Source of the DNA: a virus
Length of the DNA stretch: 13,011 nucleotides
UHGV virus genome: UHGV-1813710
Reading direction: 5' to 3' (one strand)
Below, in pieces: positions 2,831 through 12,997 of this stretch. The notes beneath the pieces were generated by a model. It ran no database searches. It was not told the DNA's origin and saw nothing but the letters and a program-made list of their open reading frames with translations. Within the stretch, counting starts at the first letter, position 1; the number at the start of each line of letters is the position of its first letter. A program made the translations under genes and the position numbers.

Positions 2831-2898
2831 TCCATCAACCGCAGTCACTAGCACTATCAGTGGTTGTGGATACTTAAGAGACTTAGGTGGGAGTTCAA

Positions 2899-3159
2899 AT
2901 GACTAGTTATTACACGTGCTCTTTTTGCGGGATACGCGAGCAGGATGCTAAAAGGATTGTTGCCAAGGGTGGCAGAGATGAGCCAGCAATCTGCTCTAAG
3001 TGCATTGTCTCATGTGTAAATGTCATTATTAACGCAGGAACAGTAATGGAAATAGAGAAAAAAGGCGCCAATAAGGGTGAATTAATCCTTGATATGGAAT
3101 TGGCACCTCGATCAGAAAAAATGTCATTTACTCAGACTGAGGTAGCTCAATCGGATTAA
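2899..3159 (+). CDS. Small protein (86 aa) with a ClpX-type C4 zinc-finger (ClpX N-terminal zinc-binding-domain-like) and no ATPase domain
   Basis: Sequence MTSYYTCSFCGIREQDAKRIVAKGGRDEPAICSKCIVSCVNVII has C-x2-C-x19-C-x2-C and parallels the ClpX N-domain (recalled E. coli motif YCSFCGK…RKLIAG…ICDECVDLCNDII). GGGAG Shine-Dalgarno 6 nt upstream of ATG 2899; the track's 2887 start is GTG. Confidence 0.65.
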   Translation: MTSYYTCSFCGIREQDAKRIVAKGGRDEPAICSKCIVSCVNVIINAGTVMEIEKKGANKGELILDMELAPRSEKMSFTQTEVAQSD

Positions 3160-4406: not shown

Positions 4407-4493
4407 ACCACACAGAGAGAAGTGCTTGTTGAGTGCTGCCCTGTGTGTGGAGAACGTATCGCGATGTGCATCGCACTTTCTGAGGGTCAAACA

Positions 4494-4868
4494 ATGAGTA
4501 AAGAAAATCGCATGACAGTAGTGCCCGAGTTCTTGGGCGAACTGGATGCAGGGATCTTTGAAAATAAGATTGCTGCAGCGTTAAACAGTACCGCTTTAGG
4601 CGTTCTAAACAACGGCGGTAAAGGTCAGGTTGTTGTTACGTTTGATATTGATCGACTGAGCAATTCGGTTGAAGAAAAACGCGTTGGTATTAAGCATAAG
4701 TTGAAGTTCGTTACACCTACCCCACGGGGCAAAGTGTCAGAAGAAGACACCACGGAAACGCCTATGTACGTAGGGAAAGGTGGCAAGTTAACAGTATTGC
4801 AAGAAGATCAAGGGCAACTGTTTTCAATCGATGGCGCCCCGGATGGAAAATTGCGCCAAACGCAATAA
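4494..4868 (+). CDS. Hypothetical phage early protein (124 aa)
   Basis: ATG at 4494 with GAGGG Shine-Dalgarno 7-11 nt upstream. The track's longer form starts at 4422, but that extension is encoded by a palindromic leader and is Cys-rich. Confidence 0.6.
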   Translation: MSKENRMTVVPEFLGELDAGIFENKIAAALNSTALGVLNNGGKGQVVVTFDIDRLSNSVEEKRVGIKHKLKFVTPTPRGKVSEEDTTETPMYVGKGGKLTVLQEDQGQLFSIDGAPDGKLRQTQ

Positions 4869-4925
4869 TCTTGGCAATTAAATAAACCTCACCATTTTAT
4901 TACTTAATTAAAGCAAGGATAAAAC

Positions 4926-5753
4926 ATGTCACAAGTAGACGGTTCAGCTATTCAACAAATTAAAGATCTTTCACTGGCTGCATTTTATTTAGACCCAATT
5001 AAATCAACTAACTGCCCTGCAGTTATTATTCCGTCTGATTATCAAGTTAAGAGCTTGGAAAGCTTAAATGATGGTCGTTTTCGTTTTCGCGGCAAATTAA
5101 GCACAACTAGCATTGCTGATTTTGTTCGTTATTCATCTGCATACTCTGAAGGTCAGCCGGGCGCCAGTTGTTTTATTGACGCTGACAATATGTGTGCAAC
5201 ATCCGTTTTCAACCTAGGCACGCTTGAGAGCGCAGGCCACGCTGATAACACTGCAGCAATCGCTTTGAAAAAAACAGCACCATTCTGTGCTCTGCTTGAT
5301 TTCAATGGCGAAAAGTCACGCCAAAAGCAGCTTGCAGAATGGCTAGAGGATTGGAGCGACTTCCTCACCGCCTTTGATGCAGACGGCAAGGTACTTCCAA
5401 TTAAACAAGCTGTTAGCGCCATTCGCCGTATTACCATTGAATCAGTGCAAAGTGCGGATCATGAAGATGCTGATTTCAGCGGTAAGCAGTCATTGATGCA
5501 AAGTGTAGAGGCTAAAAGCAAAGAGATCATGCCTGTGGCCTTTGAATTTAAGTGCGTACCTTATGAGGGCTTATCCGAGCGCCGTTTCAGTCTGCGTAAT
5601 AGTATTCTGACGGGGGACACGCCTTTATTCGTTCTGCGTATTGTTCAACTGGAAGCTGTAGAGGAAGAAATTGCAAACGAATTCCGTGATCTGCTCACAG
5701 AGCAATTCACAGGCAAATCAATTGAAACCTTTATTGGTAATTTTAAAGCCTAA
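4926..5753 (+). CDS. Hypothetical phage protein, DUF2303/YfdQ-like (recollection, unverified)
   Basis: 275-aa ORF with AAGGA Shine-Dalgarno 7 nt upstream of the ATG. Its size and the following HD-domain gene resemble the yfdQ-yfdR arrangement of the E. coli CPS-53 cryptic prophage. Confidence 0.65.
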
Positions 5754-5779
5754 TTATTAATAACATTTAATACAGCCTT

Positions 5780-5803
5780 AAGCACCGAGCATATTCGGTG
5801 CTT
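5780..5803 (+). other. Perfect 8-bp stem hairpin in the intergenic region between early genes
   Basis: AAGCACCG (5780-5787), 8-nt loop, CGGTGCTT (5796-5803). The downstream tract is only moderately T-rich, so it may be an attenuator or processing/stability element rather than a strong terminator. Confidence 0.3.
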
Positions 5804-5843
5804 AGTGAAGTGTTATCTGTTTAATGTGTGGAGAAATTAAAAA

Positions 5844-6377
5844 GTGAATAGCCCTTATATTATTACCTTCTCAGGTAAAGCATTTAATTTAATCGAGCCT
5901 CAGCGCGAGCAAATAGTGATCGAGGATATTGCTCATGCGCTAGCGAGAGAAAACCGCTTTAACGGTCACACTAAGGCCGCATACAGCGTTGCCCAGCACT
6001 GCTATCACGCATCATTTTGTGTACCGCCAGAGTTCGCACTTGAGGCGCTAATGCATGATGCTGCCGAGGCTTACATCAAAGATATTCCATCACCAATAAA
6101 GCTTCTTTTGCCAGATTATCGCGCATTAGAAAAACGCGTTGAAATGGCTATCTGCGAACGATTTGGCCTACCACTAGCGCTGAGTAGCTGCGTCAAATAT
6201 GCAGACCTCATCATGCTGGCATCAGAAAAACGCGACCTTGGCATCGTCGATGAAAAACCGTGGCCACTTTTGGAAGGTATTCCAGTTGCTGATTTCACTA
6301 TCGAACCAATGACTGCAGAAGTTGCCGAGCATCTCTTTATGGGGCGCTACGTAGAATTGACGGAGCTATGCAAATGA
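5844..6377 (+). CDS. HD-domain phosphohydrolase (YfdR/YfbR-like nucleotidase family)
   Basis: HD-domain signature H…H…HD: IAHALARENRFNGH…YSVAQHCYH…EALMHDAAEAYIKDIPSPIK, plus VKYADLIMLASEKRDLG. GTG start at 5844 with GGAG 11 nt upstream. Confidence 0.75.
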   Translation: MNSPYIITFSGKAFNLIEPQREQIVIEDIAHALARENRFNGHTKAAYSVAQHCYHASFCVPPEFALEALMHDAAEAYIKDIPSPIKLLLPDYRALEKRVEMAICERFGLPLALSSCVKYADLIMLASEKRDLGIVDEKPWPLLEGIPVADFTIEPMTAEVAEHLFMGRYVELTELCK

Positions 6378-6754
6378 CGCACATCAGTGAAATACCAGCA
6401 GGAACATTAGTTAAGCAAGCGCATGCAGGCGTGAAGCTTATTGCTGAACAGTATCCAGAGGCAGCGGCAATATTACGTGAAGCCATTACACGCTTTGATG
6501 TGTTGCGTGAGGTCCACCAGCTGACCAACCACAAAGTTAAAAAGCCCGTTACTGATGTGAAGCCTAATGATGTTGTTTGTGTTTTTGGTAAGTGCTACCG
6601 GCTGCGATACATCAACTATTACGGGAACCATTCAGTATTGCGCTTTCAGCCAGCTAGAGAGCCACTATCTCCATATACAGAAAATGATGTGATCAGCATC
6701 GATTTAGCAAATGACATTCTGATTGAGGTTGTGGGGGGGCTGAACAATGTCTGA
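6374..6754 (+). CDS. Hypothetical phage protein (about 126 aa)
   Basis: ATG at 6374 overlaps the TGA of the HD-domain gene (ATGA), with GGAG 8 nt upstream; the track uses the in-frame ATG at 6368. Confidence 0.55.
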   Translation: MTHISEIPAGTLVKQAHAGVKLIAEQYPEAAAILREAITRFDVLREVHQLTNHKVKKPVTDVKPNDVVCVFGKCYRLRYINYYGNHSVLRFQPAREPLSPYTENDVISIDLANDILIEVVGGLNNV

Positions 6755-7499
6755 ATTATCAACTGAGCGTTTAGAAAAATTCGTCAACGATATTAAAACT
6801 GATGGGATGTGCGACATAACTGATTATCAAGTTGCGTTGGCGTTACGTCAGTTACTGGCATACGAGCAAGCAGTACCGGTATTACCTAAACAGCCTGAGA
6901 CTCAGTTCGATGAAATCGCGCTTGATACTGCAAGAGAGATTATGCGTGATGTAAACCAGCGCCATGAATTGATTGGCGGTGAGTGTCAGTTGCTTGCGCG
7001 CACTCAGTGTCGAATTAATGACGTACTGTGTAACGTCGCAGCACCAGCACAACCTGTAATACCAGAACAAGCTAAGCCTGTGGCATATACAGACAATAGA
7101 AACTTAAAAAGTCTACAGAAAGGATGTAATACGGCATTGCTCTGGCTTAAGCATAACGCCGAAGTTGGTGATATTCCTCTATATACCGAAGTGCCGACAC
7201 AACCTGTAAGCGAGCCTTACAAGCTACCAGTCGGATATTTTTCTTATGGCTCTGAGTGTGGTTTTGATTGGCACAATACAGAGAAAGAAGCGATTGAAGC
7301 TGCCGAGGCTGTAATTGACAACTATCGCGGTGATGCGTGCGACGGCTGGTCTGAGGAAACAGACAGTGTCTGCTGGGGTGTCATTTTGCAACAGGCAACA
7401 AAGGTCGATGAGCGCCCACGTACTGATGATGATAAATGCGATCCGGCTATTGATACGGTCTGTGATTACGCGCTACTACCGGCGCAGGAGAGCGAATAA
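6747..7499 (+). CDS. Hypothetical phage protein (250 aa), Cys-containing C-terminal region
   Basis: Start overlaps the upstream gene by 8 nt, with a GGGGG Shine-Dalgarno. Ends in …AQESE, whose codons form the Shine-Dalgarno for the next gene. Confidence 0.6.
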   Translation: MSELSTERLEKFVNDIKTDGMCDITDYQVALALRQLLAYEQAVPVLPKQPETQFDEIALDTAREIMRDVNQRHELIGGECQLLARTQCRINDVLCNVAAPAQPVIPEQAKPVAYTDNRNLKSLQKGCNTALLWLKHNAEVGDIPLYTEVPTQPVSEPYKLPVGYFSYGSECGFDWHNTEKEAIEAAEAVIDNYRGDACDGWSEETDSVCWGVILQQATKVDERPRTDDDKCDPAIDTVCDYALLPAQESE

Positions 7500-8263
7500 T
7501 GCGCCCTCACTTTCACGGAACCCCGATTTGGGGGAATGCTGGCGATGTTTTGCGTGTTGCTGTTAGCGGAGCTGGTGCATTCGTTTCTTACGTTAGACCA
7601 GACCAGATTGAGCGCTGTTTTAAATATGCGGATAGTGTAGCTATCGATAACGGCGCGTTTTCAGCATGGAAAAGCGGCAAGAAATTGGATTGGAATAAAT
7701 TCTATGAATTCCTGTACAGGCATTATCACCGCTCAAAGCTTGCATTTTTTTGTATTCCAGACGTTGTGGAAGGTGGTGAAAGCGATAACGACGCAATGAT
7801 TAAAGCCGTTCCGCACATATTCAAAGAAAAAGCAGCTCCGGTTTGGCATTTACACGAATCTATCGAGCGCTTAATTCGTTTGTGCGAAGAGTGGCCGCGC
7901 GTGTGTTTTGGCTCGTCTGGTCAGTACGCGCGAACATTAACAAAGCTATGGCATGAGCGCATGAAAGAAGCTTTCACGGAGATTTATATCAAGCGCCAAC
8001 TGACAACGAAAATACACGGACTACGCATGCTTGATGGTCGCATTTTGGGTAACTACCCGCTACACAGCGCAGATAGCACAAACCTAGCATGCAACGTTCC
8101 AAAATTTAACATGAAGTATCCAGAGCTAACCCGAGCTGTATTAGATAAGGGGTATGGTCAAGACATGGTTCAACTACACCGTTGCGCGATTCTAAAAAAC
8201 TCAATTGAGTCAGTAACACCGCCGAGCATCGCGGCGTGGGTAGCTGCACAGGAGAGCGAATAA
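7499..8263 (+). CDS. Hypothetical phage protein (254 aa); weak, unverified resemblance to tRNA-guanine transglycosylase (TGT)/DpdA-type proteins
   Basis: TAATG overlap with the upstream gene. Segments HGTPIWG, VAIDNGAFSAW and GLRMLDG loosely parallel the TGT segments PVGTYG, LTDSGGFQV and GIDMFDCV (recollection, not a computed alignment). Confidence 0.6.
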   Translation: MRPHFHGTPIWGNAGDVLRVAVSGAGAFVSYVRPDQIERCFKYADSVAIDNGAFSAWKSGKKLDWNKFYEFLYRHYHRSKLAFFCIPDVVEGGESDNDAMIKAVPHIFKEKAAPVWHLHESIERLIRLCEEWPRVCFGSSGQYARTLTKLWHERMKEAFTEIYIKRQLTTKIHGLRMLDGRILGNYPLHSADSTNLACNVPKFNMKYPELTRAVLDKGYGQDMVQLHRCAILKNSIESVTPPSIAAWVAAQESE

Positions 8264-8264
8264 T

Positions 8265-8549
8265 ATGGCTCGGACGATTAACGACTCTATAGATGCAACT
8301 ATAGCCTCTCTCGTTAGTAACATTCACAACTTGCGCAAAGAAGTAGAAGAATCAGCCGTTCTACGACTGGCAAGCTTCCGCCAGCGCGAACTAATGATCG
8401 AAGGCGTTCGACAAATGTCCGCGCATTACAAAAAGGAGGCGAAAAGCTTTATGGACTCACAAGATCAAGTTGAGGCCATTGATTGCAGCTATATCGCTAA
8501 AAAGTGTGATGCATTTATTGCGCACATTATGAAGCAGGAGAGCAAATAA
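8265..8549 (+). CDS. Hypothetical phage protein (94 aa), predicted helical
   Basis: ATG 2 nt after the upstream stop, preceded by the same CAGGAGAGCGAATAAT junction motif. Confidence 0.55.
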   Translation: MARTINDSIDATIASLVSNIHNLRKEVEESAVLRLASFRQRELMIEGVRQMSAHYKKEAKSFMDSQDQVEAIDCSYIAKKCDAFIAHIMKQESK

Positions 8550-8911
8550 TGCCGACTAACAAGATAACAGAGCATTATCTTAGTTCATTGATCGTTAGAT
8601 TGCGCCGCCGCGCGTTTGAACTGACAGGGACTCAATCAGCGAATCTTATGAATGAAGCAGCTAAAGCGATCTATGAATTTCGTGAGTATAGAAGAGCTAA
8701 TCCAGCGTTGCCCGCCGGCTGGAAGATAGCCCCGCGAGATCCGGATGAGGAAATGATTATAAGGGGTTTTGAGTCTGAACCCGATGAATCATTCAGCACG
8801 CCGGAGGATTGGGAGCGGTACGAAAAAATGAGTGGATGCGAGCAAGCTGCGCATAGAGTCAAATTAAGTTGGACTGCAATGTTTGATGCAATACCCCCCA
8901 TTAAGGATTAA
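8549..8911 (+). CDS. Hypothetical phage protein (120 aa)
   Basis: TAATG overlap with the upstream gene; third copy of the junction motif (CAGGAGAGCAAATAATG). Confidence 0.55.
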   Translation: MPTNKITEHYLSSLIVRLRRRAFELTGTQSANLMNEAAKAIYEFREYRRANPALPAGWKIAPRDPDEEMIIRGFESEPDESFSTPEDWERYEKMSGCEQAAHRVKLSWTAMFDAIPPIKD

Positions 8912-9505
8912 ATGATGATCGACTCAATTGTTATTGATACCGAAACTATGGATGTGCGCCCATCTGCATTATTGCTTTCAATCGGCGCAATTGCATTCGA
9001 TGTGACAGATCTCGAAGCGCTTCGCTACAACATTTCTTATGCAGTTAAAGCGGAGCACCACAGCAGTGAGTCATATGTTTTCTATCATCTGCTAGATGCT
9101 AATTCACAGATCATGGTAGGCCGCACCGTGTCTAGAAGCACTCAGATGTGGTGGAGGGGGCAAGGTGATTCAGCAAAAGCAGCGTTGGATGGCGATAAGC
9201 AAGATCTAAAAGAAGTACTTGAAGCATTGACGCACTGGATAGCTCAATATCCAGATGCACAGATTTATTTTCGTGGTACTGACTTTGACGGTTCTATTCT
9301 CGAGAGTGCGTATCGAGCTTACGACTTGAAATGTCCGTGGAAATATAATGGCAAGCGCGATGTACGTACATTCATTGATGCATTGAGCGGGAGCGATAAG
9401 GGTTATATTGCAGATCATGAACCTTGCTTTGCAATGATTAAGCATAATTCACTTCATGATGCGATGAACGATGCAGAGCAAATGGCTATAGCTCACTCTC
9501 TTTAA
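8912..9505 (+). CDS. DEDDh-type (DnaQ-like) 3'-5' exonuclease
   Basis: Exo I-like IVIDTETMD, Exo II-like FRGTDFDGSILESAY and Exo III-like HNSLHDAMNDAEQ are present in the expected order and spacing. ATG immediately follows the upstream TAA. Confidence 0.75.
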   Translation: MMIDSIVIDTETMDVRPSALLLSIGAIAFDVTDLEALRYNISYAVKAEHHSSESYVFYHLLDANSQIMVGRTVSRSTQMWWRGQGDSAKAALDGDKQDLKEVLEALTHWIAQYPDAQIYFRGTDFDGSILESAYRAYDLKCPWKYNGKRDVRTFIDALSGSDKGYIADHEPCFAMIKHNSLHDAMNDAEQMAIAHSL

Positions 9506-9782: not shown

Positions 9783-10960
9783 TGGCAGCTCGACCACGCA
9801 AGCGTGAAAACCGGCACCTTCCCGATCTGCTGTATTTCGATAAAGTTGCCGGCGTTTATCGCTTTACCCTAATCACGGGAAAGAGAAAATCATTAGGCTC
9901 TGACCGTGCTTTAGCAATCGCTATTGCGCGTGAATATAACAATAGAATGCGACCGGATATAGTTGTATCAGTTGACTCGCTTATTAGTGAATCGGGCGGC
10001 TTGAAGGGGGAATCCCTGCCCTTCTCCAGTCATGTTGATCATATTCTCGCTCGTGCTATCACGGACGAGAAACCAAGCCCTGATACAAAGGCTGACTGGA
10101 TGAATGATGCAAAACGAGTGAAAGAATTCTTCATTGACATTCACTGCTGCGATATTGAACTAGAGCACGTCAATGCGTTCATTCAGCATTATCATGCTGA
10201 AGCATCAGCAAACGTACAAAACCGCAAAGTTAGTTTTCTAAAGAAATTATTTAGTTATGCAGTAGACGAATCGTTAATGTTCGATAATCCAGCAACTAGA
10301 AAGAAAATGCGGAGAATTGAGGGGAAAGTTCGCCAACGCTTATCTTTCGACAATCTGATGGCTATACGAAACGCCGCGGATCGATGGCTGCGAACTGCGA
10401 TAGATCTAGCTCTACAGACAACGCACGCCCGGCTTGAAGTTTCCCGAATTCGCTATTCAATCAAAGAGCCCAAAAATGGCGTGTGTGGCTGTGTGTGGTT
10501 CGACGCTCCAGAGAGTGGGATTTATGGCGTTATGTATATACACAGGCAGAAAGTGCAGCACAAAGAAGCATCACACGTCGCAATACCAATCGGGCCTGAA
10601 CTTAAAAGAATTATTGATGATAGCCGCGACAATGCTGCTAGCCCATACATTGTTCATCGTTTACCAAAACGCAATAATAAGCCAAGCAAAGAGGTTTCAC
10701 ATCCTACACAAGTAGCGCCAGACTACTTGAGCCGGGCATTCTCAACACTTCGAGATGAGCTCGGGATTTGCTCACATCTTGAAATGGATGAACGTCCGAC
10801 ATTCCATGAAATCCGAGCGCTTGCTGCACACCTATTTGATACGCAAGGCATTGACCCACAGGGCCGCATGGCTCACAGCGACGCTAAGTCGACTAAGATA
10901 TACACGCAAAATCATATCGATTGGGTCATGGTGCCGCACGGCGAGATCAAGACGGGATGA
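9779..10960 (+). CDS. int: Tyrosine site-specific integrase, lambda Int family
   Basis: N-terminus RENRHLPDLLYF…GKRKSLGSDRALAIA parallels lambda Int HERRDLPPNLYI…GKEFGLGRDRRIAIT. C-terminus has PTFHEIRALAAHLF (H-x-x-R box) and …STKIYTQNH (catalytic Tyr). Adjacent to xis and to the tRNA-derived att core. Confidence 0.95.
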   Translation: MMAARPRKRENRHLPDLLYFDKVAGVYRFTLITGKRKSLGSDRALAIAIAREYNNRMRPDIVVSVDSLISESGGLKGESLPFSSHVDHILARAITDEKPSPDTKADWMNDAKRVKEFFIDIHCCDIELEHVNAFIQHYHAEASANVQNRKVSFLKKLFSYAVDESLMFDNPATRKKMRRIEGKVRQRLSFDNLMAIRNAADRWLRTAIDLALQTTHARLEVSRIRYSIKEPKNGVCGCVWFDAPESGIYGVMYIHRQKVQHKEASHVAIPIGPELKRIIDDSRDNAASPYIVHRLPKRNNKPSKEVSHPTQVAPDYLSRAFSTLRDELGICSHLEMDERPTFHEIRALAAHLFDTQGIDPQGRMAHSDAKSTKIYTQNHIDWVMVPHGEIKTG

Positions 10961-10991
10961 TTGATGGTAAAACCCATACTTAAGCTATTGA

Positions 10992-11037
10992 TGTATATAC
11001 ACCAACTTTTGCGAATTATGCACTGTTTGTATATACA
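10992..11037 (+). repeat. Two direct copies of TGTATATACA between int and the att core (candidate integrase arm-type or IHF sites)
   Basis: TGTATATACA at 10992-11001 and again at 11028-11037, 36 bp apart, in the roughly 130-bp AT-rich stretch between the int stop and the tRNA fragment. Confidence 0.35.
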
Positions 11038-11094
11038 GTCGACAACCTAGAGAAACCAGTGCTGGCGCGGGTTTCAGCGTGTTGAATACGCTAA

Positions 11095-11140
11095 CATGGG
11101 GTGTCGGGGGTCGGAGGTTCAAATCCTCTCGTGCCGACCA
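11095..11140 (+). other. Partial tRNA: 3' about 45 nt of a tRNA-Pro-like gene (anticodon loop to CCA), i.e. the att core repeat at the prophage boundary
   Basis: T-arm GGAGG-TTCAAAT-CCTCT (11113-11129), acceptor 3' strand CGTGCCG, discriminator A and CCA (11138-11140). No complementary 5' acceptor strand (CGGCACG) upstream, so the tRNA is not intact. GGG sits at the inferred anticodon position and the string matches my recollection of enterobacterial tRNA-Pro. Confidence 0.65.
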
Positions 11141-11152
11141 AATAATCCCAAG

Positions 11153-11182
11153 AAAACCAACCTATTATGGGTTGGTTTTTTT
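11153..11182 (+). terminator. Rho-independent terminator (tRNA-gene-type) just outside the att core
   Basis: AAAACCAACC stem, TATTATG loop, GGTTGGTTTT pairing, followed by a run of T residues to 11182. Confidence 0.7.
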
Positions 11183-11453
11183 ATGTCTTCAATTTGTCAC
11201 TACGGCCAATATTACGCGCAGCAAGAAGTAAAAAAGCCCCCAAAGTGATTGGGTGGCGGGCTGAGGAAGTGCTCGAGATGGCTGAAGCAGGACTGATATA
11301 CGACGAATTTAGGGTAGTCTAAAGCTATTTGAATCCTCATGACCACGCTGAGGTTGAGGTATACTGCTTCAGAGCGGGGTAAATAAATTACGTCGCTATA
11401 GACAGACATAGGGATTGTCGCAGTTCTGGTCAGAAGACATTAGGATTGAGAAT

Positions 11454-11780
11454 ATGGAAATAAATCACTGCGAATTATATGTCAAAGACCTTGTCGGCCT
11501 GTCCCTGATTTTGATTGTGTGGGCTGTACTCGTCTGGAACTTCATTTCCTGCTGTTTCACAGGGCGTGCTAGCTTTATGTTTTCCCGTTATAGCTTCAGA
11601 CGCACCAAGGACGAATTGGGAATCATTGGGGATCGAACGGGAAGTAAGATACTCTATTTCTTAGCTATGGCGCTCAAGTTACTTTTAATTGTATTTTTTT
11701 CATACAGTGTATTTGTGCCATTGTTCAGCCCTGGAGTATTTGAGGAAGTAATGGGCCACATTTTTACCTGCCATAAATGA
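11454..11780 (+). CDS. Possible small membrane protein (two hydrophobic segments); doubtful
   Basis: ATG at 11454 with AGGA 9 nt upstream; the track form starts at TTG 11415. Two hydrophobic stretches (LVGLSLILIVWAVLVWNFI and ILYFLAMALKLLLIVFFSYSVFVPLF). Could equally be a degraded region. Confidence 0.25.
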   Translation: MEINHCELYVKDLVGLSLILIVWAVLVWNFISCCFTGRASFMFSRYSFRRTKDELGIIGDRTGSKILYFLAMALKLLLIVFFSYSVFVPLFSPGVFEEVMGHIFTCHK

Positions 11781-11989
11781 GTTCTGATACTCTACCCTCC
11801 CCCCACGGTGAACTTTTAATGTTAATAAGTTTGTTCATTTCGTTACGTTGCTTCTGCAGATGGAGCCCCTCTATAACGAATAAAAAAACAATCATTAGGG
11901 TCTTTTAATACCTAATTAACCAAAAGTAACATAGCATTTTCATAATAGATAAAATTAGATATAATCAAATATTATCTATTATTAATAGC

Positions 11990-12997
11990 ATGGCTAATTT
12001 TTATTACATGGATACAGACAAAAATTTCAATCATGAAAATGATTCACTATTCAAAAAAAACACTATTAAAACAAGCAATAACAATCTAAAAGTACTAAAT
12101 ATTGCATTCTGTTTTGATGATAATTTTGTGATGCCAACAGGTGTAGCCATTGCATCTGTCATTGAAAACAATAAAGACTCGCACCTCCACTTTCATTTAT
12201 TCTTCGAATCCATTTCTGAAAAAAACAAATCTAGAATACTTGAGATACAAGGTGATAACGTTTCAATAACAACATATGAACTTCAGGAAGAACTATCCGT
12301 CAATCCTAATACACTCATTCTGGGAATCCCAAAGTCCACGTGCTTAAGATTTATGGTTCCTTTTGTTCTACGGCATGAGGTTGATTCTGTTTTATATTTG
12401 GATGGCGATATGATTTGCTTAGATTCATTACACGCCTTACATGACCTAAACCTTAAAGGACATATTGCCGCTGTAGTTGCTGACTCTAAAGAGATGCAAC
12501 AGAAAGCCAGCACACTAGGATACGGTATTGATACCGATAAATATTTCAATGCAGGATTTTTATTTATCAATGTATCTGAGTGGAATTTTAAAAATGTCAC
12601 CGCCGTGGCATTTAACATGATCAATAGCGGTACAATTTATAAATATGCCGATCAGGATGTATTAAATATACTCTTAAACGAAAACATTAAATTAATTGAC
12701 AAGAAATATAATAAAACTATAACGCTAAGCCCTATCGATAGGGTAGATGATAATGCATCTCGTGGCACAACCATTTTGCATTATGTTACAAAAAATAAAC
12801 CGTGGTTTATGATATTTGAGTCTCAGATTTTCTTTTATTACCTGAATCAATCTCCATGGAAAGACACGCAATTAAAACTGACACCTAATGCTAGCCTGCT
12901 TAGAATAAAGGCAAAAAAACTCCTTTCTGATAAGAAATTTGTCGATTGGATAAAATATTTCTCCCTATATATTAAATATAAATTATTTAGCAAATAA
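11990..12997 (+). CDS. Glycosyltransferase family 8 (LPS/LOS glycosyltransferase-like, RfaJ/LgtC type)
   Basis: GT8 hallmarks: NIAFCFDDNFVMPTGVAIASV (nucleotide-sugar binding region), YLDGDMIC (DxD motif), NAGFLFINVSEW, YADQDVLN and HY…KPW. Very AT-rich gene preceded by an AT-rich promoter-like region. Confidence 0.8.
   Translation: MANFYYMDTDKNFNHENDSLFKKNTIKTSNNNLKVLNIAFCFDDNFVMPTGVAIASVIENNKDSHLHFHLFFESISEKNKSRILEIQGDNVSITTYELQEELSVNPNTLILGIPKSTCLRFMVPFVLRHEVDSVLYLDGDMICLDSLHALHDLNLKGHIAAVVADSKEMQQKASTLGYGIDTDKYFNAGFLFINVSEWNFKNVTAVAFNMINSGTIYKYADQDVLNILLNENIKLIDKKYNKTITLSPIDRVDDNASRGTTILHYVTKNKPWFMIFESQIFFYYLNQSPWKDTQLKLTPNASLLRIKAKKLLSDKKFVDWIKYFSLYIKYKLFSK

Follow-up and report, generated by a model that had tools for sequence, protein, structure and literature searches.

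How phages come to be mosaics is a long-standing question: modules may be exchanged through homologous linkers, or they may be joined illegitimately and then sorted by selection. The DNA examined here, a stretch of 13,011 nucleotides from the virus genome UHGV-1813710 (hereafter, the window), belongs to a prophage, of which it forms the early-left (exo-xis-like) operon, and it poses the question at the scale of single genes, since one short element, t1, stands at three of its consecutive gene boundaries. Is t1 a linker at which modules are exchanged, or a start signal that has been fixed again and again?

A junction element repeated at three gene boundaries

The genes and t1 copies that concern this question are the following:

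6747-7499, + strand: Ea22-like mosaic gene, 250 aa; its modules are joined by linkers H, Y, A, B and C, and t1 closes it (...LLPAQESE, stop)
7485-7501, + strand: linker t1, copy 1; exact CAGGAGAGCGAATAATG, read as CAG GAG AGC GAA TAATG and encoding QESE
7499-8263, + strand: cassette 1, DpdA-like / queuine tRNA-ribosyltransferase-like protein, 254 aa; linker-encoded tail ..W-VAAQESE, stop
8249-8265 (8249-8267 including the ATG), + strand: linker t1, copy 2; CAGGAGAGCGAATAATA, one mismatch; CAGGAGAGCGAATAAT-ATG
8265-8549, + strand: cassette 2, 94-aa protein, function not assigned; ends ..MKQESK, stop
8535-8551, + strand: linker t1, copy 3; variant CAGGAGAGCAAATAATG, one mismatch, encoding QESK and the stop
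8549-8911, + strand: 120-aa gene whose start is supplied by copy 3; last before the exonuclease, xis-like and int genes

The first-pass annotation had reported a near-identical 17-nt element at these boundaries, and the element is real: three copies are observed against 0.06 expected by chance with up to three mismatches allowed, 200 shuffles gave at most one match and none gave three, and t1 is the top direct-repeat family of the operon. The copies had been correctly located, except that their start positions were given one base too low. Their composition can be read directly in the sequence as had been described, each copy providing the last codons of one gene, an AGGAG, the stop and the next start. 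The upstream genes end in ...LLPAQESE, ...VAAQESE and ...MKQESK, respectively, and the next ones start at 7499, 8265 and 8549. Overlap or near-abutment of same-strand ORFs is present at all three junctions: in copy 1 (TAATG at 7497-7501) and in copy 3 (8547-8551) the stop overlaps the ATG, while in copy 2 the stop (8261-8263) is separated by one T from the start at 8265 (TAA-T-ATG, 8261-8267). The TAATG overlap is therefore not common to all copies. The AGGAG lies within the upstream ORF, 8 nt from the next ATG in t1 and 9 nt in the sister linker t2 described below, that is, within the 5-10 nt 5′ of the start where a Shine-Dalgarno sequence is placed. Stop/start overlap is the classic layout of translational coupling, and from knowledge of such junctions translation of each downstream gene is probably coupled to that of the upstream one.

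The proteins that carry the common tail are mutually unrelated (BLASTP E>2); the sharing of a C-terminal tail by unrelated proteins, already recognized earlier, thus stands, but it concerns three proteins and not two. No same-strand promoter-like or terminator-like site was found on any linker; one weak opposite-strand promoter-like match (8555-8526) overlaps copy 3, and such matches are fewer in the region than in shuffled sequence. The inverted-repeat scan gave neither inverted repeat nor palindrome at the three t1 copies or close by, RNA folding of the three junctions revealed no common structure, occluding or other (z-scores -1.5, +0.4 and -2.3), and the search for known RNA families in the window returned none.

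The cassettes and their linker-encoded tails

The product of 7499-8263 matches phrog_887, “queuine tRNA-ribosyltransferase”, with E=5e-82, and has no match in Pfam or NCBIfam; indeed, NCBIfam gave no matches for any of the four genes around the t1 copies. Among the best 120 of 5,331 DpdA-like homologues the names are nearly all “hypothetical” or “uncharacterised”, with one “transcriptional regulator”. The conserved domain terminates at ..PPSIxxW, and within the same best 120 of 5,331 a QESE or QEQK tail is found only in the window protein and in one 95%-identical homologue; on these sequence grounds the QESE tail is foreign to the DpdA-like enzyme. Close homologues end in quite different tails. 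In the relatives of the window phage, unrelated proteins end in ..AQESE or ..AQEQK, including DpdA-like, C5 methylase and PAPS-reductase-like proteins and small ORFs, and the tail-bearing proteins belong to unrelated folds. The family of the 94-aa gene recurs in Hafnia phage yong2 (L211) and in L228, with t2 on both sides and other neighbours.

Distribution of the linkers among related phages

t1 occurs at junctions of the same operon in the Hafnia phages Meifeng, yong1 and yong2 and in about 50 viral contigs, together with its sister linker t2 (CAGGAGCAGAAATAGATG), which gives the tail QEQK before the stop. Copy 3 of the window occupies the place where t2 sits in most relatives. In the cultured Hafnia phages the linker operon is always located 5′ of the integrase gene. 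The 30-nt extended linker was matched, among cultured phages, in Hafnia phages only, and 5,426 complete E. coli genomes gave no match for it; a near-identity search with 6700-9000 found in phages a single 138-nt piece of Meifeng and nothing in E. coli genomes. Matches to these cultured phages, the sole basis for a host assignment, suggest Hafnia as the host of the window phage. A scan of 596 Gb of genomes with a 16-mer, which is too short for such a search, yielded, among the matches listed (at least 120), mostly chance matches in unrelated taxa; the seven Enterobacterales ones among those listed lie inside one conserved chromosomal gene and not at a junction. The window sequence itself was independently recovered in two other assemblies.

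The integrase of the window, at the prophage end, is of the ordinary lambda type and has an arm-binding domain. No recognisable recombinase was found in the window's operon, and yong2 is likewise devoid of an extra enzyme; the yong1 operon carries an HNH endonuclease and a recombinase, and no extra enzyme was found to be conserved across the linker loci.

Linkers inside the Ea22-like gene

The protein encoded by 6747-7499 has PHROG matches that span only parts of it and none in Pfam or NCBIfam, while its genomic position fits the ead/Ea22-like family. Inside the gene there are short conserved segments whose flanks are unrelated:

6760-6775, + strand: linker H, CAACTGAGCGTTTAGA, ..TERLE..; conserved head segment, from a de novo 16-mer screen
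6855-6873, + strand: linker Y, CTGGCATACGAGCAAGCAG, LAYEQA; from the de novo 16-mer screen, with a place in the linker order
6870-6899, + strand: linker A, GCAGTACCGGTATTACCTAAACAGCCTGAG, A-V/A-PVLPKQPE; 27 distinct sites
7035-7069, + strand: linker B, ..GCAGCACCAGCACAACCTGTAATACCAGAACA, AAPAQPVIPEQ; 22 distinct sites
7198-7228, + strand: linker C, CACAACCTGTAAGCGAGCCTTACAAGCTACC, (A)QPVSEPYKLP; 32 distinct sites

Linkers A, B and C are about 30 nt long, in frame and upstream of t1. Sharing is limited to the linker itself in 307/351 pairs of sites for A, 205/231 for B and 429/496 for C, and conservation at third codon positions is 0.97, 0.94 and 0.92, respectively. A diverged linker C is present in annotated Ea22, ead/Ea22-like and DUF551 genes of E. 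coli and Salmonella, at about 80-88% nucleotide identity; the peptide PVSxxYKLP is kept in the Ea22-like proteins of both, and therefore a constraint at the protein level contributes at C.

t1 is accordingly one of several ordered linkers that Hafnia-type temperate phages carry in their early accessory region. Across 49 loci the linkers stand as H>Y>A>B>C>t1>t2, and no array reverses this order. Among 175 adjacent linker transitions there is a single backward step, t2 followed by H 1,347 nt later (L239), which is the start of a second linker array.

Flank diversity and homology breakpoints

The loci were picked for carrying the motif, so identity within it is given by construction, and only flank diversity and breakpoints count as evidence. 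For t1, 37 distinct junctions were compared and 588 of the 666 pairs have nothing but the motif in common; t1 and t2 together give 87 distinct junctions, with 44 upstream and 36 downstream clusters in 81 combinations. Identity is about 0.97 (0.96-1.0) inside the linker and falls to about 0.25 from +18 and from -15 outward. Both flanks are kept together in 3/46 pairs at linker junctions versus 101/271 at other junctions of the same loci, where mosaicism is also high (63% of informative pairs). The search in related phages that had been proposed for the motif thus finds it recurring at gene junctions with combinatorially different flanks.

The linker itself measures 17 nt, or up to 29 nt if the AAPA codons are counted, and 27 of the 43 distinct t1 junctions have the exact 17-mer. 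Conservation of the core GCA-CAG-GAG extends to third codon positions, and there is little variation in the spacer codons AGC GAA or in the GCA and CCA codons just 5′. The residues before QE vary widely (LLPA, VAA, IMK, TVA, AMA and others), and either tail, QESE or QEQK, occurs within members of one gene family. Linker type goes with the downstream gene as a trend only, mixed clusters being 3/20 downstream versus 8/19 upstream.

All three t1 copies of the window coincide with homology breakpoints (7501, 7505, 8254, 8247 and 8561). The segment from linker C to t1 is common to the window and L175 and ends exactly at 7501; dpdA homology with L212 covers 7505-8254 and ends inside the CAGGAG of copy 2; homology of the 94-aa gene with yong2 extends over 8247-8561. 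Further upstream, homology with L202 stops at 6779; at the right edge of the variable region, homology with relatives is back at 8915, where no linker was found. A clean recombinant pattern involves three contigs: a 666-nt block of L152, reaching from linker B as far as the final base of t1, matches L148 with 100% identity, and an 891-nt block of L152 that begins 13 nt 5′ of t1 matches L123 with 96.4% identity. Elsewhere, cassettes are swapped in order (L142 versus L194) or one is inserted between two linkers (L122 versus L211). The suggestion that the 17-mer marks mosaic breakpoints is thus borne out at every copy in the window and in the three-contig pattern; with the combinatorial flanks, the breakpoints also support the likeness to lambdoid module-shuffling linkers that had been noticed at first.

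Probable exchange at a coding linker

Taken together, the comparisons of sequence make it probable that t1 is a recombination linker of the type proposed by Botstein, doubling as a translational-coupling junction. The codons for Q-E-S-E end the upstream protein while the AGGAG inside them precedes the next ATG; with the AGGAG in the tail codons and the ATG at the TAA, any downstream gene therefore gets the same ribosome-binding site and start. Linkers t1, t2, H, Y, A, B and C are the sole sequence common to otherwise unrelated modules, and, as the comparative pattern suggests, homologous recombination between co-resident phages or prophages would cross over within these tracts of 17-30 nt. Crossovers in two different flanking linkers would replace one module with order and reading frame kept, and crossovers between repeat copies of one linker would lead to gain or loss of cassettes; the window holds three t1 copies. 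Frequent exchange would keep the linkers near-identical, third codon positions included, and unrelated proteins all ending in ..AQESE or ..AQEQK would be its by-product. The minimum for Red-beta recombination is cited as about 30 bp (PMC3945230); linkers being shorter than this, exchange at t1 must be rare per infection. Other points tell against exchange at linkers as well: no recombinase is recognisable in the window's operon, junctions that have no linker are highly mosaic too, the variable region's right edge at 8915 is free of any linker, and at C the protein-level constraint contributes.

The same observations can be read in other ways, which have to be weighed against exchange at linkers. 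t1 might be purely a translation signal: selection would have arrived separately, at every junction, at the optimal combination of Shine-Dalgarno, spacer and stop/start, and mosaicism would stem from illegitimate recombination elsewhere, with intact genes then selected, as in the Hendrix/Juhala view. The AGGAG 8-9 nt 5′ of the ATG and the overlap typical of coupling agree with this, and so do the other junctions of these operons, which are mosaic without any linker; however, other coupled junctions in the same operon have quite different sequences, and expression therefore has no need of the exact 17-mer. Moreover, the AGC GAA spacer and the upstream GCA and CCA codons would not be expected to be largely invariant, it is implausible that dozens of junctions converged independently on the same 17-29 bases, A, B and C behave alike inside a gene, a place that calls for no start signal, and homology blocks terminate inside the linker, as in L152; this explanation is consequently improbable. 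That the DNA is kept because of a functional C-terminal peptide, AAPAQESE or AAPAQEQK, acting as a protease, partner or localisation tag, is more improbable still: third codon positions are conserved as much as first and second ones, the two tails alternate within one gene family, and the wide variation before QE and the differently tailed close DpdA-like homologues do not fit a tag, even if the same final 4-8 residues are found on many unrelated proteins and the linker C peptide is conserved across genera.

A site-specific cassette system, in which the linkers are recognition sites of a recombinase or nuclease (integron attC-like, shufflon-like or homing-type), is brought to mind by the arrays in which small cassettes, all in one orientation, share a repeated boundary and lie next to an integrase, and by the HNH endonuclease and recombinase of yong1. 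It is about as unlikely as the peptide tag, as neither inverted repeat nor palindrome is present in the linkers, which also lack a common RNA or DNA fold, the integrase is of the ordinary lambda type, no additional enzyme is conserved (the window and yong2 have none), and seven linker sequences in fixed order suit homology-guided exchange rather than one recognition site. Chance, or chimeric metagenome contigs joined at a repeat, could be invoked given that the 16-mer is short, with genome-wide matches that are mostly unrelated chance ones among those listed, and that many related loci are metagenomic. The excess of copies over expectation speaks against chance, and the same architecture is present in three cultured, completely sequenced Hafnia phages, the window sequence was found independently in two other assemblies, and the assembler k-mer (k141 in contig names) exceeds the 17-30 nt of the linkers, which makes this the least credible of the explanations.

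Beyond exchange at linkers as such, it is conceivable, though rather doubtful, that the linkers are more than remnants of earlier crossovers and form a selected, ordered “plug-and-play” scaffold, in which at least seven of them (H, Y, A, B, C, t1 and t2) define slots. Within a phage population, these slots might accept domains of proteins as well as entire accessory or anti-restriction genes, with frame and order preserved and, for t1 and t2, expression too. Among the slot contents would be DpdA-like proteins, C5 and SAM methyltransferases and PAPS-reductase-like proteins. If true, such a scaffold would resemble an integron driven by homology instead of by a recombinase of its own, and would offer a clear example from nature of Botstein's linker hypothesis at the resolution of single genes and single domains.

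The locus is an unusually clean natural example, with dozens of junctions having the same 17-30-nt linker between unrelated flanks, exact breakpoints inside linkers, a fixed order and three cultured Hafnia phages. The linker explains the odd common C-terminal tail on unrelated accessory proteins, which bears on their annotation and expression, and it suggests a natural design for phage engineering, in which genes are swapped with constant expression.

Comparison with known systems

As described in PMC3029335 and PMC2839356, Botstein/Campbell linkers are short, conserved boundary sequences of lambdoid phages, at fixed map positions between non-homologous interchangeable modules, and homologous recombination in them was proposed to keep modules placed and expressed. 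The criteria of the modular theory are found here as well: a conserved short sequence with non-homologous flanks, the same position and order, and breakpoints in the linker, along with combinatorial flanks. Unlike those boundaries, the present linkers are in-frame coding sequence and operate at the scale of single genes or domains rather than of large functional modules, and t1 and t2 encode stop, Shine-Dalgarno, start and a common peptide tail. The likeness is one of description; the linkers described here were matched in Hafnia-type phages only.

Linkers A, B and C resemble the glycine-rich motifs (GRMs) of the T-even gp38 adhesins, small conserved in-frame motifs between hypervariable segments, for which segment-swapping crossovers were shown experimentally (Tetart 1998; Trojet 2011, PMC3157838). 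GRMs, however, build up the structural core of a single domain in a single protein, whereas the linkers described here are Pro/Ala/Gln-rich, join unrelated domains or genes and cross gene boundaries. The PeSL of T4-type phages are repeated boundary elements around small accessory genes, that is, shuffling linkers carrying expression signals (PMC2839356); they consist of a non-coding early promoter and a stem-loop terminator that isolate each cassette transcriptionally, while here promoter, terminator and hairpin are absent and the cassettes appear to be chained translationally in one operon. A PeSL-like reading was rejected, as was an attC-like one, after the promoter/terminator and inverted-repeat scans found nothing functional at the linkers.

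The lambdoid exo-xis genes ea22, ead/Ea22-like and DUF551 have a common N-terminal part and unrelated portable C-terminal domains (PMC10834534, PMC7093339). In these two papers the term “linker” is absent and no junction common with downstream genes is described. The Ea22-like gene of the window has the same genomic position, and a diverged linker C lies in the E. coli and Salmonella genes; in contrast to that family, its product is unrecognised by Pfam and NCBIfam models.

Integron attC sites are imperfect palindromes recombined by IntI. The linker arrays are like integron cassettes in being promoterless and same-orientation, with unrelated functions and a recurring boundary element; they differ in that the linkers are coding and have no palindrome, and no IntI-type partner was identified, and exchange here is best explained by homology.

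Operon organization and the three t1 copies

The window covers the right end of a prophage, with its early-left, exo-xis-like operon; the sequence was also recovered from two independent assemblies. The + strand carries, in order, a cI-like repressor, homologues of yfdP, yfdQ and yfdR, a 128-aa gene, a 250-aa gene, a DpdA-like (phrog_887) gene, 94-aa and 120-aa genes, an Rv2179c-like exonuclease, a small xis-like ORF and a lambda-type integrase, followed by a host glycosyltransferase gene. The strongest direct repeat of this operon is a 17-mer linker, t1, which forms near-identical junctions at three gene boundaries, as claimed in the first-pass annotation; the sites reported there are correct, with start positions one base low. 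When up to three mismatches are allowed, 0.06 copies are expected and three are found, a number reached in 0 of 200 dinucleotide-preserving shuffles.

t1 copies and genes with t1-encoded ends
7485-7501, + strand: t1 copy 1, exact 17-mer CAGGAGAGCGAATAATG
8249-8265, + strand: t1 copy 2, one mismatch (last base A); start ATG at 8265-8267
8535-8551, + strand: t1 copy 3, one mismatch (G>A), giving QESK
6747-7499, + strand: gene ending ...LLPAQESE, stop; next start 7499
7499-8263, + strand: gene ending ...VAAQESE, stop; next start 8265
8265-8549, + strand: gene ending ...MKQESK, stop; next start 8549

The open reading frames confirm the gene ends and starts as previously described, and AGGAG lies 8 nt ahead of the ATG at all three copies. 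The proposed stop/start overlap is present at copies 1 and 3; copy 2 reads TAATATG, without the TAATG overlap. The tail is indeed shared by unrelated proteins, which are three rather than two and have no mutual similarity (BLASTP E>2). Elsewhere in this operon, coupled junctions have sequences unrelated to the 17-mer, and therefore the exact 17-mer is dispensable for expression.

Distribution of t1 and of the sister linker t2

The extended linker (CGCAGCCCCAGCA plus the 17-mer) was searched for in 50,697 cultured-phage records and matches only Meifeng, yong1 and yong2, all Hafnia phages; in every one of them it occupies a gene junction in an operon whose end is formed by the integrase gene or adjoins it. 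No match was found among 5,426 complete E. coli genomes. Scanning of viral contigs for the motif gave 88 stretches. About 30 of these make up a clear family, with Ala/Pro codons ahead of the motif (typically AAPA-QESE, stop) and ATG after it. A k-mer screen of start regions revealed t2, CAGGAGCAGAAATAGATG (..AQEQK, TAG then ATG), which marks 26 additional junctions in these operons and occurs in 42 stretches of viral contigs. The core common to t1 and t2 is GCA-CAG-GAG, with conservation of 0.82-1.0, third codon positions included.

The bare 16-mer also lies inside a conserved chromosomal gene, on one strand and not at a junction, in seven loci (L019, L046, L052, L068, L075, L092, L110); carriers among the matches listed are the Enterobacterales Rosenbergiella, Mixta, Scandinavium, Atlantibacter and Morganella. 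These were rejected as linkers, being unrelated chance occurrences away from gene junctions. In the family loci, the start region TAGGAGATATTCATG recurs ahead of 8-9 genes with differing beginnings and may be another junction type; several terminator-like sequences, e.g., TTTGCCCCTCTCGTTAGGGGCTTTTTT and CGGCGGGGTTTTTTATTGCC, recur with unrelated flanks (e.g., L122-L239), pointing to another class of boundary elements, non-coding ones, elsewhere in these phages.

Combinatorial flanks and homology breakpoints

The 37 distinct t1 junctions were compared as 666 pairs: 588 have nothing but the motif in common, 20 share only the upstream gene end, 41 only the downstream gene start, two share both flanks and 15 show intermediate similarity. 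Mean identity is 0.96-1.0 across the t1 16-mer and falls to background (~0.25) from the first base past the ATG, while upstream it decays gradually over 12 nt. When one flank is shared, both are kept in 3/46 cases at linker junctions versus 101/271 at non-linker junctions of the same loci, an approximate control that also reveals mosaicism across the whole region. Pooling of t1 and t2 gives 87 distinct junctions, with 44 upstream-end clusters and 36 downstream-start clusters in 81 combinations. The gene families PSRAAFSAP- and CPICGHRLAA- end in either QESE or QEQK; members of the 94-aa family likewise carry either a QESE/QESK-type or a QEQK tail, and the DpdA-like gene ends in QESE in the window and in QEQK in locus L212. 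Linker type is mixed in 3/20 downstream clusters versus 8/19 upstream clusters, a trend hinting that the 3′ half of the linker may travel with the downstream gene.

A search of related phages for the 17-mer, proposed earlier as a check for mosaic breakpoints, located it at junctions with combinatorial flanks, and breakpoints occur at all window copies. Homology with L175 spans 7200-7501, ending on the final base of copy 1; the L212 DpdA-like gene is 85% identical over 7505-8254, an interval that starts just past copy 1 and reaches the CAGGAG in copy 2, and has t2 on its 3′ side and no linker on its 5′ side. Phage yong2 shares the 94-aa gene (8247-8561, bounded by copies 2 and 3) among other neighbours, with t2 on both sides. 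Over 666 nt, from linker B (described below) to the G of the t1 ATG, locus L152 matches L148 with 100% identity; over 891 nt, starting 13 nt ahead of t1, it matches L123 with 96.4% identity. The only overlap between these two stretches is GCAGCCCCAGCACAGGAGAGCGAATAATG. Cassette chains differ by an order swap (L142 vs. L194) and by an insertion between two like linkers (L122 vs. L211).

The L212 gene (4001-4765), the closest DpdA-like relative, is part of a prophage whose integrase module differs; a simple ATGA overlap forms its 5′ junction, and only a very short ORF comes after its t2.

The tailed cassettes

The product of gene 7499-8263 has no Pfam or NCBIfam match; it matches phrog_887 (DpdA-like/queuine tRNA-ribosyltransferase-like, E=5e-82) and has 5,331 homologues. 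Among the best 120 of these, the conserved domain ends ..PPSIxxW, tails beyond it vary, and the QESE/QEQK tail occurs only in the window protein and one 95%-identical homologue; the t1/t2-encoded tail is thus foreign to the proteins carrying it. The named sequences among the same 120 are from Enterobacterales plus one Shewanella, almost all "hypothetical", and no preQ0 synthesis genes are visible within the window. The tail is also carried by, among other cassettes, a C-5 DNA methylase, a SAM methyltransferase and a PAPS-reductase-like protein; one linker-started slot contains a DUF4406 protein with a differing end, ..LERK.

Linkers inside the probable Ea22-like gene and their order

BLAST of the window against the compared loci gave isolated ~30-nt matches within 6747-7499, corresponding to three further conserved in-frame segments, linkers A, B and C; an unsupervised 16-mer screen of the window yields only these, two more (H and Y) and two of the three t1 copies.

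In-frame linkers of gene 6747-7499
6760-6775, + strand: linker H, unsupervised 16-mer screen
6855-6873, + strand: linker Y, unsupervised 16-mer screen
6870-6899, + strand: linker A, AAPVLPKQPE; 27 distinct sites; 307/351 pairs share the linker alone; third-position conservation 0.97
7035-7069, + strand: linker B, AAPAQPVIPEQ; 22 distinct sites; 205/231 pairs share the linker alone; third-position conservation 0.94
7198-7228, + strand: linker C, AQPVSEPYKLP; 32 distinct sites; 429/496 pairs share the linker alone; third-position conservation 0.92

Identity in A, B and C is 0.9-1.0 over ~27 nt and ~0.25 outside, third codon positions being conserved like the first and second. The 250-aa product is not recognized by Pfam or NCBIfam; the gene is probably best called Ea22-like, because a diverged linker C (~80-88% nucleotide identity; peptide PVSQTYKL in two translated examples) is found within E. 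coli/Salmonella genes annotated as Ea22, ead/Ea22-like or DUF551, and because Ea22 genes are known to be mosaic, with portable C-terminal domains (PMC10834534).

Across 49 loci the linkers follow the order H>Y>A>B>C>t1>t2, with one backward step in 175 adjacent transitions (t2 then H, the start of a second array in L239). Arrays show skips and duplications (t1-t1 nine times, t2-t2 three times, B-B twice); that of the window is t1-t1-t1, without t2. B, C, t1 and t2 have in common a (P)A-Q core, GCACA(A/G), which could allow occasional crossovers between different linkers and may explain the skips. A 13-nt core, GCACAACCTGTAA (A-Q-P-V; window 7037-7059 and 7187-7209), is common to B and C, and t1/t2 begin with the related GCACAG.

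Possible mechanism of module exchange

The comparisons show the anatomy of the junction and its recurrence, combinatorial flanks, breakpoints within linkers, a fixed linker order, and conservation at the DNA level that extends to third codon positions. An integron-attC-like mechanism was rejected, since the linkers have no inverted repeats and folding of the three t1 junctions gave no common RNA fold; a PeSL-like mechanism was likewise rejected, as no promoter-like or terminator-like site lies on the same strand at any linker. The window contains no Rfam family.

Modules would instead be exchanged by homologous recombination inside the short linker tracts, whose lengths fall below the ~30 bp cited for Red-beta (PMC3945230). 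Frequent exchange would homogenise the linkers, and t1/t2 would provide any resident cassette with translational coupling and a uniform start signal. The initial likening of the 17-mer to linkers proposed for module shuffling is supported by the combinatorial flanks, the breakpoints inside linkers and the fixed order. The set agrees with the concept of linkers in modular phage evolution (PMC2839356, PMC3029335) and resembles the conserved motifs of T-even gp38, where crossovers are experimentally supported (PMC3157838); it is therefore regarded as an unusually clear example of this known kind. No description of this linker set was found in the literature searched, which did not extend to the original lambdoid boundary-sequence report.

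Other features of the prophage

The cI-like repressor (1720-2700; 326 aa) is above the usual size for such proteins, its S24 peptidase domain being preceded by a pair of helix-turn-helix regions (residues ~26-88 and ~113-164); just 3′ of its gene, a 90-aa ORF (2887-3159) has a match to the C4-type zinc finger of ClpX (PF06689, E=3.7e-7). The homologues of yfdP, yfdQ (DUF2303) and yfdR (HD phosphohydrolase), at 4422-6377, follow the gene order of CPS-53, a cryptic prophage of E. coli, and lie directly upstream of the linker array, a layout also found in yong2. The prophage right end is at ~10960-11990, followed by the host GT8 glycosyltransferase gene (11990-12997). In prophage-free contigs (L242-L244) the GT8 gene lies ~1 kb downstream of a DUF3413/sulfatase gene, and the integration site is therefore placed between these two genes.
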